Positions 54,249-60,879 of a DNA stretch of 64,000 nt are shown piece after piece. Made by a program: the position numbers and the translations under genes. The stretch covers positions 32,001-96,000 of the IMG/VR virus record IMGVR_UViG_3300019850_000189. One strand, written 5' to 3'. The stretch comes from a virus. Position 1 is the stretch's first letter. The number at the start of each line of letters is the position of its first letter. The notes below the pieces were generated by a model that was not told the DNA's origin, ran no database searches, and worked only from the letters and a program-made list of their open reading frames with translations.

Positions 54249-55088
54249 ATGCTTAGTGCTCTCTCAAAGCAATCTGTAAGAGTACAGAAAACATGTCCTT
54301 TATGTGGCTCTGTCTTTTATGTTGAACGCAAAGTGCTTAATGGTATGCCACATCAAAAATCTAAAGAACGTAAGTTTTGTTCTATAAAATGTGCTCGTGC
54401 TTATTCTACAATCGGCGATCGTGGAAAACACAAGATAGCGGCTTGTATTGTTTGTGGTAAGCCTATAATTGTAGGTAAAAGAACGGACGTTTCTAGGGTT
54501 AAGTGCGATAATTGTAAGTCAACACGAACGCACAACAAAAAGTCTTATACCTGTAAAGTTTGCGGTAAAAGCATAGGCAAGACAAAAACCGGACTTTGCG
54601 CGTCTTGTCTGCATAAATCTAAAGAATATAAAAAAAAGTTGTCGGATTCACAAAAACGTCTCGTTAAAAACGGCACTCATATCGGGTGGCAAGTAAGATC
54701 AAAGCTTAGCTATCCAGAAAGGTTTTTTATCAATGTATTGAAAATAAATAGCTTGAACGAACAGTTTATAGTCAATCATCCGGTCAAAAAAAACTCTTTA
54801 GGAGTGCAGAGCTCAAGTTGTTATTTTTTGGATTTCTTTTTTCCTGATAAGATGATTGATTTAGAAATTGACGGTAAACAGCACAAATACAAGGACAGAA
54901 AGCAAAGCGATAAAGTGAGAGATAATCTATTACGTAAATCCGGCTACAATGTTTTTAGAATTGAATGGAAATCTATTAATAATGATACCGGCAAACAGTA
55001 TATTCGAGAAAGAATTTCTGAATTTTTGAAATTCTTTCATTCGACTGGGAGTAGCGCAGTTAGGAGCGCGCAGCGCCTGGGACGCTGA
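54249..55088 (+). CDS. Homing endonuclease (multiple Zn fingers plus DUF559/Vsr-like domain)
   Basis: Several CxxC pairs; YFLDFFFPDKMIDLEIDGKQH...RDNLLRKSGYNVFRIEW; 3' end overlaps tRNA-Pro. Confidence 0.8.
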   Translation: MLSALSKQSVRVQKTCPLCGSVFYVERKVLNGMPHQKSKERKFCSIKCARAYSTIGDRGKHKIAACIVCGKPIIVGKRTDVSRVKCDNCKSTRTHNKKSYTCKVCGKSIGKTKTGLCASCLHKSKEYKKKLSDSQKRLVKNGTHIGWQVRSKLSYPERFFINVLKINSLNEQFIVNHPVKKNSLGVQSSSCYFLDFFFPDKMIDLEIDGKQHKYKDRKQSDKVRDNLLRKSGYNVFRIEWKSINNDTGKQYIRERISEFLKFFHSTGSSAVRSAQRLGR

Positions 55089-55117: not shown

Positions 55118-55214
55118 CATTCGATCTTTGACATAGAAAAGACTTAAAATATTTGATCCTGGAAGCATATATAATAATAGTATCACATAAGTTCTTTGAG
55201 ATTATTATTAACGT

Positions 55215-56036
55215 GGCTTGACACGGATAGCATGTCGCAAGGCATGTAAAGGCGGCTTGGCAACCGCCACCGATCGCAAGATCGGCCAATTCAAACAAGC
55301 TGACATCCCTATGGCTTCGCATGCCTGCGGAGCTTGCACCGACATTGGACGAAGACAGCATAGACTGAGGGTAACACTGTAAGCTTATGTTTCTCGTGGA
55401 AAGGATTATTCGTAACCATAACCAATTAGATGTTAGGATGAACAGTAGTTATATTGTCTGAGCTTTTGCCAGCAAGGGCTTTATAGCAGTTTGATAGGTT
55501 GGTGGACATCCAGTACACCGGTCTTGAAAGACGGTTTAGTATCCGGCAGGAGAAAGACAGACAGCGTCCGGCATTTTGTAGGTCAAAAGCCTATGAAACT
55601 GGTGGATCAGCGCGTTGTCGCTATGGGGAGACCCATTTTTCAATGATAGCTCAAAGGTAGAGCACATGTCTTAGAAACACATTATGCTGTTGGTTCAACT
55701 CCAACTCATTGGCTTTATCCGCAAAGACTGGTCCGGTATTGAGTGAAAGCAGCTTAATTCCATGCCCTTCGGGAACATGGACTTTCCGAGGCTCGCAAGG
55801 CTAAAGAAAGTTAGTTGTAAGAAGCACGGCGAGGTTAGCGCCTCCTTATAGCTCGCAAGGCTGACGGTATTCTGAGAACTGAGTAGCTCAATGCGTCACT
55901 GGAAATGCCGCCAGTATAAAAAGGCAGTTGTGTTGATTTACCGTTCCTGGAACGGTGGATAAGTTCTTAAGGCCCGGTTAGCGGCCGAGCTGTACGAGGG
56001 CAAAAGGATTGACATATAGAGTTGTAGTCTCAGGCT
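55215..56036 (+). ncRNA. GOLLD-like giant ncRNA (~820 nt)
   Basis: ORF-free GC-rich stretch in a tRNA array; ends pair (ggcttga/tcaggct); many GNRA hairpins (gatcgcaagatc, ctcgcaagg twice, tcttgaaaga); 3' GAGTTGTAGTCTC; embedded tRNA. Family assigned from recalled characteristics. Confidence 0.65.
55640..55713 (+). tRNA. tRNA-like element (Leu TAG anticodon) embedded in the GOLLD-like RNA
   Basis: tcaatga/tcattgg acceptor; gctc/gagc D-stem; gttgg-ttcaact-ccaac T-arm; only 3 bp in the anticodon stem; short variable loop. Confidence 0.6.
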
Positions 56037-56302
56037 TTATAAATTTTTTGGATAATTCAATGCTTACAAAAGGTTTAAAGAAAGATGATTTTTTTGAACT
56101 TGCTAAAGTCTATGAAATAAGCTGGACAAAATATCAATTTGTTGAAGAACTTACCAAATTATGCCAGATTTGATGGCATCCTGCATACAAGCAATTTTAA
56201 GTATTTACTTTGATGGCAATATGGTTATATTAAATGACATGATCACAAAGAGCTATGTTAAACTAGCAAATAAAACTGCTCAGGTCAAATATGGACTTAT
56301 AA

Positions 56303-56377
56303 GGGGCTGTAGCTCAATTTTGGGAGAGCGTCTGACCTGCAATCAGAAGGTAAGGGGTCCGAATCCCCTCAGCTCCA
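56303..56377 (+). tRNA. tRNA-Ala(TGC), C33 and C55
   Basis: ggggctg/cagctcc; ccTGCaa; T-loop TCCGAAT. Confidence 0.88.
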
Positions 56378-56385
56378 CAAATGAC

Positions 56386-56414
56386 TTTACAAAATTGTTG
56401 TTATGTGTTATAAT
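56386..56414 (+). promoter_or_regulatory. Sigma70-like promoter
   Basis: TTTACA-17 nt-TATAAT with upstream TG. Confidence 0.8.
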
Positions 56415-56436
56415 ATGTGTACTCAAGGAGAACATC

Positions 56437-56661
56437 ATGGCCCAAAAACTGAAATGGTTTCATTATATCGTTGATGGCATGGATGCCAGAAAGGCGGTCA
56501 TGATTAAAAAAGCTTTGCTTGGCGCCGTTCCTCAGATTATAAATGTGTATGTTAGTTTACGCGAATCAAAAGTTTCAGTGTATTCCATTAAACCATTTGA
56601 GAAGCAGGTTAAAATGGCAGCAGAAGTGGCGAATGCCAGCTTTAGAACAAAACTCAAATGA
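56437..56661 (+). CDS. Small HMA-fold-like protein lacking the metal-binding cysteines
   Basis: AAGGAG SD; YIVDGMDARKA..IKKAL...VYVSL pattern. Confidence 0.55.
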   Translation: MAQKLKWFHYIVDGMDARKAVMIKKALLGAVPQIINVYVSLRESKVSVYSIKPFEKQVKMAAEVANASFRTKLK

Positions 56662-60626: not shown

Positions 60627-60863
60627 AGTTTGACGGTTCCGGTTCTACGCTGTATATGATAACATATATAGAGGAAACACCGAACATCTCTGCTCTAATG
60701 CAGGAGGCGAAAGCTGTTTGGACTGCAGAGGATGCGACCACAAATAACTCTAGGTGGTGAGCAGGCCAATGATGAGATGGTAGTGGGCAGCTGAAAAGCC
60801 AGTTGAAAAAACTGAGATAGATGTAGAACAAAAACAGAATTCGGGTTATAGGAACCGTCAACT
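60627..60863 (+). ncRNA. rnpB: Compact RNase P RNA
   Basis: P1 ttgacggttcc/ggaaccgtcaa; P2 gttctac/gtagaac; P3 hairpin; CR-I-like GAGGAAACACCGAAC; CR-IV-like GAGCAGGCCAA; CR-V-like ACAGAATTCGGGTTA. Confidence 0.8.
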
Positions 60864-60879
60864 TAATATAGCATAAGGA

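Follow-up and report, generated by a model that had tools for sequence, protein, structure and literature searches.

Two GOLLD cages have been solved, a 14-mer for env-38 and a 12-mer for Streptococcus agalactiae (Kretsch et al., 10.1101/2024.12.08.627333; review PMC12990946). [quoted passage not shown] A Mycolicibacterium GOLLD with a tRNA-Phe in J13/15 is credited to Morgado et al. 2020 in a review (PMC12990946) that also proposes 'inhibited storage' as an idea. In Mycobacterium aubagnense, a pseudo-tRNA is located inside a GOLLD that belongs to a cluster of 32 tRNAs and is adjoined by an HNH endonuclease; Northern blots of this organism detected the GOLLD RNA but not a separate pseudo-tRNA product (Behra et al. 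2019, PMC6582537), which argues against excision in M. aubagnense. Since linker tRNAs and pseudo-tRNAs in GOLLD have been published, both the architecture described below and the idea of a defective tRNA within it were already known.

The GOLLD locus considered here, in a phage genome, resembles those of Mycolicibacterium and M. aubagnense in that a tRNA-shaped insert occupies the same place in the linker, a large tRNA array surrounds it, and an endonuclease gene adjoins it; as with the mycobacterial linker tRNA and pseudo-tRNA, the insert appears to be non-functional as a decoder. It differs from the mycobacterial cases in a 2-nt insertion that produces a 9-nt anticodon loop, in its C73, in a body that is otherwise perfect, and in its nominal UAG anticodon, and it resides in a lytic-type T4-like phage rather than in an actinobacterial chromosome. 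What is new here is limited to details, namely the 9-nt loop, the phage-encoded mini RNase P-like RNA alongside, and a hint of shape over decoding. The overall reading preferred here, and considered rather probable, is that the locus encodes a full-length GOLLD RNA whose linker contains a tRNA-shaped, non-decoding module acting by its shape.

A GOLLD RNA in a phage tRNA island

The DNA analysed (the window) is a stretch of 64,000 nucleotides comprising bases 32001-96000 of a 189,375-bp IMG/VR virus record that is estimated to be 79% complete. The phage is T4-like, with genes for rIIA, the tail sheath and a gp46/SbcC-like nuclease, and its GC content is 35.6%. No close cultured relative was found: by tblastn, the tail sheath is less than 41% identical (at most ~40%) to that of any deposited phage; blastn of the GOLLD region against 50,697 phage records gave zero matches; and searches by way of the downstream 166-aa ORF and of rIIA produced no usable relatives. 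ARAGORN identified 36 tRNA genes and a tmRNA in the phage genome, every tRNA being on the + strand and 28 of the 36 lying inside the window, and GOLLD is situated in this one-directional tRNA island, with tRNA genes on both flanks (Table 1).

Table 1. Features of the GOLLD locus and its surroundings. Positions are those of the window unless marked as genome positions.
Feature	Position	Strand	Evidence or remark
279-aa ORF, DUF559/Vsr-like endonuclease domain	54249-55088	+	Pfam E 1e-7
tRNA-like gene, UGG (Pro) anticodon	55045-55117	+	Rfam tRNA 45 bits, sensitive run only
GOLLD 5' domain (cap domain)	55213-55558	+	nhmmer profile, family alignment, GC rise
P14 hairpin, UCAAAAG loop	55559-55620	+	Rfam alignment, model 1-62; opening element of the model
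Variable linker	55621-55734	+	~model 63-130, AU-rich unstructured positions, 41-nt insertion
tRNA-shaped insert, nominal anticodon UAG	55640-55713	+	Rfam tRNA 49.9 bits; ARAGORN Leu, anticodon TAG
GOLLD 3' domain, pseudoknot strand to terminal hairpin	55735-56036	+	RF02032 model 131-416
166-aa ORF, probably not a real gene	56161-56661	+	No Pfam match
tRNA-Ala(UGC)	56303-56378	+	267 nt downstream of GOLLD 3' end
RNase P-like RNA, 234 nt, catalytic domain only	60631-60864	+	RF00010 62.7 and 54.2 bits
Free tRNA-Leu(UAG), 82 nt	genome 96251-96332	+	Canonical; 8.5 kb downstream
Free tRNA-Leu(UAA)	genome 96399-96474	+	Past the window end
Free tRNA-Leu(CAA)	genome 97269-97345	+	Past the window end
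Amber-reading tRNA, CUA anticodon	genome 105149-105220	+	Past the window end
tmRNA, tag ADENLALAA	genome 108175-108519		Past the window end

The tRNA-like gene on the upstream side, 95 nt from the GOLLD 5' end, has an unusual T loop (GGCAGAG), was missed by ARAGORN, and overlaps the final 44 nt of the 279-aa ORF. This ORF, immediately upstream of GOLLD, is reminiscent of the HNH endonuclease that adjoins GOLLD in mycobacterial tRNA clusters. On the downstream side, the 166-aa ORF spans the tRNA-Ala gene on the same strand. The phage also has an amber-reading tRNA and a tmRNA (Table 1); genome-wide recoding of TAG is not evident, because coding coverage under the standard code is already high (at least 0.9). 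In the sequences adjoining GOLLD, no convincing sigma-70-like promoter, intrinsic terminator or copy of the T4 late-promoter motif TATAAATA was found.

An earlier note on this DNA, made without database searches, had assigned the region to GOLLD and had suggested a check against the Rfam model, and the assignment was correct. The model (RF02032; Weinberg et al. 2009), which represents only the conserved 3' half of GOLLD, matches positions 55559-56036 of the + strand over its full length (1-416 of 416, not truncated) with a score of 162.6 bits (E 9e-44), above the gathering cut-off of 150 bits. Because the model is restricted to the 3' half, the 5' half was examined separately with a profile made from nine other GOLLD loci (in each, the 400-450 nt that precede P14), the window being left out (nhmmer, leave-one-out). 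This profile matches positions 55184-55567 with 116.7 bits (E 3.3e-35), and no second place in the 64 kb scores with it. The GC content is 0.44-0.58 from ~55200 to ~56040, compared with 0.28-0.34 in the flanks. As had been noted, the region of ~820 nt is free of likely genes: no ORF on its + strand exceeds 54 aa, and a 143-aa ORF on the minus strand, over the first 150 nt of the region, lacks Pfam support. The match to the 5' domain and the rise in GC content indicate that the span originally proposed (55215-56036) was essentially correct, and on the strength of sequence homology it is nearly certain that positions 55213-56036 of the + strand encode a GOLLD RNA, which would be full-length at ~824 nt.

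The 5' domain starts with a short local hairpin (loop GCUUGA) and also contains two GCAA-capped hairpins. In the linker, a small GAGA-capped hairpin (55623-55636) and a UUUU leader come before the tRNA-like insert, and an A-rich trailer, ending in the conserved AAAGAC, comes after it. The locus is like other members of the GOLLD family in having a 3' domain that scores above the cut-off, a homologous 5' domain, and a variable linker between P14 and the pseudoknot strand, and in being located in a tRNA island of a phage genome. In a phylogenetic tree, however, it belongs to a clade apart from the env-38-like sequences, and its 5' domain lacks one hairpin region and has less length than that of most members of its own clade. 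It also differs from known GOLLD loci in its T4-like phage of at least 189 kb, whose genome also has genes for a tmRNA and for a mini RNase P-like RNA.

The region had further been described as having ends that pair and as rich in GNRA-capped hairpins. The latter description stands in moderated form, as three such hairpins with stems of at least 4 bp are present versus 0.7 in shuffled sequences, a modest enrichment. The pairing of the ends is at the level of chance: in the full-length minimum free energy fold they are joined by only 6 bp (55215-55220 with 56031-56036), two of which are G:U, and the energy of an end-to-end duplex is -18.1 kcal/mol, versus -17.5 +/- 3.7 kcal/mol for shuffled sequences. 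Such pairing also conflicts with the family alignment, in which the GOLLD 5' end is a local hairpin with a conserved loop, and with the Rfam consensus, which has a separate terminal hairpin at the 3' end.

The tRNA-shaped insert

The cloverleaf with a UAG anticodon that the earlier note had discerned in the linker is called by both Rfam and ARAGORN (Table 1), and its Rfam score, for which the tRNA cut-off is 29 bits, is inside the range of the free tRNAs of the phage (42-68 bits). All seven positions of the acceptor stem are paired, the first pair being U1:G72; the D arm combines a 4-bp stem with A14, G18, G19 and A21 at their expected places; and the T arm has 5 bp, the loop TTCAACT, and G53:C61. 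Direct reading of the sequence finds every nucleotide of the elbow and its tertiary contacts (U8, G18, G19, T54-Psi55-C56 and A58), and the A15:U48 and G46 contacts are possible. In its body the insert would appear fully competent for recognition by RNase P, 3' tRNA endonucleases and other readers of tRNA shape.

Infernal aligns the anticodon arm with a loop of 9 nt, CUUAGAAAC, closed by a stem that has 4 bp and a C:U mismatch, the variable loop being a normal 5 nt; in the ARAGORN reading the anticodon loop has 7 nt, its stem has 3 pairs and 2 mismatches, and the variable loop is abnormal at 7 nt. Alignment with the nine other GOLLD-embedded tRNAs (see below) shows that 2 nt are inserted in the anticodon loop, on its 3' side, and favours the Infernal reading. 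By either reading the anticodon stem is weak, as had been pointed out from the sequence, and the RNAfold centroid leaves the arm unpaired. The 9-nt loop is read from a single metagenome assembly, and an exact-pattern scan of IMG/VR for the D-arm and anticodon-arm signature of the insert found no second copy. Kissing of the anticodon loop with the GOLLD body was considered and rejected: the best duplexes are no different from those of shuffled loops, and they fall at non-homologous sites in eight GOLLDs.

Two absences carry little information. The insert does lack a long variable arm, which the earlier note had contrasted with normal tRNA-Leu, but this is not diagnostic here because the free tRNA-Leu(UAA) and tRNA-Leu(CAA) of the phage, just 76-77 nt long with short variable loops, lack one too. 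Short Leu tRNAs of a similar kind are also found beside GOLLD in survey loci L078 and L081. The absence of an encoded CCA end from the insert is equally uninformative, as no tRNA in the genome encodes one.

Linker tRNAs among GOLLD RNAs

Linkers were surveyed by pattern scans with the GOLLD 3' end as anchor; these yielded 128 loci from IMG/VR, genomes and metagenomes, reduced to 97 non-redundant 3' domains. About ten of these 97 GOLLDs contain a linker tRNA. ARAGORN accounts for eight distinct sequences, including that of the window, located 289-349 nt upstream of the 3' end, and Rfam adds two (L019 and L039) in which the acceptor stems or T loops are clearly eroded; every one of the loci has an Rfam GOLLD score above or just under the cut-off. 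A tree of 85 3' domains places nine of these ten GOLLDs in one clade, alongside members that have no linker tRNA, and the tenth (L078) elsewhere.

About three of the ten linker tRNAs look canonical (Asn-GUU, Arg-UCU and Glu-CUC). A34 anticodons occur three times (AUC twice, AUU once), and a UGA anticodon on a body of 73-74 nt, without the long arm of the Ser type, has appeared in two separate lineages. The identical anticodon loop CUUGAAA (UGA) is found at L066:12222-12294 and L078:1077-1150, which belong to different clades. The nearest parallel to the enlarged anticodon loop of the window is in a Baltic Sea GOLLD, where the linker tRNA at L096:1338-1413 (+) has an 8-nt loop, UUUUAGGA, and an encoded CCA end, the latter suggesting an exposed 3' end and so hinting at processing. 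On a metagenome contig, a GOLLD with a tRNA-Asn in its linker is followed, ~1.1 kb downstream, by a group I intron (L047:9254-9521, +; Rfam 105 bits).

An anticodon arm was counted as non-canonical if it had A34 in an anticodon other than ACG, if its loop was longer or shorter than 7 nt, or if a short body carried a type II anticodon. By this definition, under which the short-Leu criterion flags free tRNAs as well, the arms of 5 of the 8 ARAGORN linker tRNAs are non-canonical, versus 16 of the 193 distinct free tRNAs of the same contigs (Fisher p 3.5e-4); with the Rfam-only calls included, the proportion becomes 7 of 10, versus 8% of free tRNAs. The four stems covary strongly across the embedded tRNAs, with pairing in 91% of cells and compensatory changes at 19 of 21 pairs, a level that none of 500 shuffles attains; tRNAs of any mixed collection would covary as well. 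Descent of the embedded tRNAs from a common ancestor was assessed by nearest-neighbour identity, and the enrichment is weak (2 of 10 nearest neighbours, 13 of 50 among the top five), so that orthology is not claimed.

Broken anticodon arms on intact bodies hint that it is shape, not decoding, that has been kept in the linker tRNAs. The combination of non-canonical arms with intact, covarying bodies leads to the conjecture that GOLLD linker tRNAs as a class may have been freed from decoding and kept for a shape needed by the cage, a generalization that is offered as doubtful.

The survey also bears on the explanation that the insert is a decaying relic of a tRNA gene, which would have landed in an insertion-tolerant linker through the frequent rearrangement of tRNA arrays and would now be drifting neutrally, doing nothing for GOLLD. 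No part of GOLLD is less conserved than the linker, which is disordered, ~87 of the 97 GOLLDs manage without a linker tRNA, and decay is visible in L019 and L039; moreover, the embedded tRNAs show no convincing sequence clustering, and an endonuclease-like ORF is located just upstream of GOLLD in the window. Against this, the damage in the window is limited to the anticodon arm, the acceptor, D and T arms and the elbow nucleotides being intact, and linker tRNAs occupy the same site across the whole clade, with compensatory changes in their stems. A relic is regarded as an unlikely explanation of the insert.

Decoding, shape and processing

In E. coli, A73 is the main identity element for LeuRS. 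The discriminator of the insert is C73 (the C at 55713), whereas the three free Leu tRNAs of the phage (UAG, UAA and CAA) all have A73. When compared with the features of a tRNA-Leu, the insert has the cloverleaf and the elbow nucleotides, but it has neither A73 nor a 7-nt anticodon loop on a 5-bp stem. It is also the only one of the 36 ARAGORN tRNAs in the genome to have an AT-rich acceptor stem. Odd tRNAs are numerous in this phage, so that oddity by itself is no proof of lost function. The earlier note had suggested that the tRNA may be a structural or processing module in place of a decoder, and this agrees with the 9-nt loop, C73, the AT-rich acceptor stem, the redundancy with tRNA-Leu(UAG) and the enrichment of non-canonical anticodon arms within the family; judged from its sequence the insert is probably a non-decoder, while its cleavage by RNase P, above all by that of the phage, is speculative.

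The contrary explanation is that a working tRNA gene happens to reside in the linker: RNase P and a 3' endonuclease would free the insert, which would then be CCA-tailed and charged and would read CUN codons; in a variant of this explanation, the enlarged loop might read something unusual such as a quadruplet. The cloverleaf, at 49.9 bits and with its complete set of tertiary-contact nucleotides, is what such a gene would have, as are the U at position -1 and the four unpaired U's in the leader, and the CCA end, unencoded as in the other tRNAs of the phage, makes a common maturation route possible. CUN codons are common (53% of the Leu codons of the phage), and the phage could therefore benefit from having two UAG tRNAs. 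The canonical-looking linker tRNAs of other loci, and the CCA end encoded in L096, point the same way. Nevertheless, a working tRNA would have to accommodate a 9-nt loop (or a 3-bp stem by the alternative reading), a C73 at odds with its Leu counterparts, and a U1:G72 pair with an AT-rich acceptor stem that is unlike every free tRNA in the genome; the phage already possesses a canonical Leu(UAG) gene, and linker tRNAs are significantly enriched for non-canonical anticodon arms. On this evidence decoding by the insert is quite improbable. Least likely is that the inserts, at 12 to 14 per cage, are decoys or sponges for tRNA-targeting defences of the host (anticodon nucleases) or for tRNA-binding factors, for which the phage setting, the many copies per particle and the variable anticodon loops are circumstantial, as is a report in the literature that GOLLD pulls down ribosomes, whereas no sequence feature marks a particular nuclease target, the loops differ widely among relatives, and the linker faces the cage interior, where it would be hard to reach.

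The reading of the insert as a non-decoding, tRNA-shaped module of GOLLD may be laid out as a series of steps. Transcription would proceed rightward together with the neighbouring tRNA genes, and the ends of the RNA would be set by tRNA processing and trimming. Its fold, as homology shows, has the 5' domain and P14 on one side of a flexible linker and the conserved 3' domain on the other. By analogy with the solved relatives (env-38 and S. agalactiae), the RNA would then assemble into an RNA-only cage with the linker facing inward. The module in the linker, to judge from its sequence, would have kept the body of a tRNA and lost the features of a decoder, being redundant with a proper tRNA-Leu(UAG), and its role may, speculatively, be exerted through shape and not through the anticodon.

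Within this main reading, it is slightly favoured, as a speculation, that RNase P would cut between positions 55639 and 55640 and that a 3' tRNA endonuclease would cut after C73; cleavage at both sites is plausible because four unpaired U's precede position 1 and a short A-rich trailer follows. Such nicking would leave pieces of 427 nt and 323 nt, possibly associated by tertiary contacts: in env-38, L26 of the 3' domain is in contact with P14, which here would belong to the 5' piece, so that the nicked pieces could stay together. The speculative alternative to nicking is an uncut, tethered tRNA-like body within the cage. In MALAT1, RNase P cleavage of a tRNA-like fold (mascRNA) sets an end of a long non-coding RNA. 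The insert would be analogous as a non-decoding tRNA shape in a long structured RNA that could recruit RNase P or RNase Z; the analogy is one of mechanism only, with no homology, and cleavage in GOLLD is hypothetical.

An RNase P RNA had been reported 4.6 kb downstream of GOLLD, and what is encoded there is an RNase P-like RNA that has the catalytic domain only (Table 1). It was detected in two runs (E 3e-18 and 4e-16), both with scores below the RF00010 cut-off of 100 bits. P1-P5, CR-I and both strands of P4 align to bacterial class A, and ~39 nt replace the S-domain; in its score and its missing S-domain it falls short of that class. The phage RNA thus seems, from its sequence, to resemble a minimal RNase P RNA and would not be fileable as class A. 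Its gene directly follows that of tRNA-Ile(UAU). Nothing ties it specifically to GOLLD, and no RNase P-like match was found in the fragments of eight linker-tRNA loci, which are short and uninformative on this point.

If the doubtful class-wide role of shape is true, the linker tRNA could be a built-in site of nicking by RNase P and RNase Z, turning one chain into two associated pieces, or a handle for tRNA-binding machinery, and the S-domain-less phage RNase P-like RNA would be a dedicated processing enzyme. The structure of the GOLLD cage has been solved, and the present finding is a modest one. It adds one more full-length GOLLD, from a clade without a solved structure. It also brings together in a single phage a GOLLD, a tRNA body seemingly unable to decode, and a minimal RNase P-like RNA, a combination that makes this phage a convenient test case for the fate of the linker tRNA, which may be cut out, serve as a nicking site, or remain tethered inside the cage.
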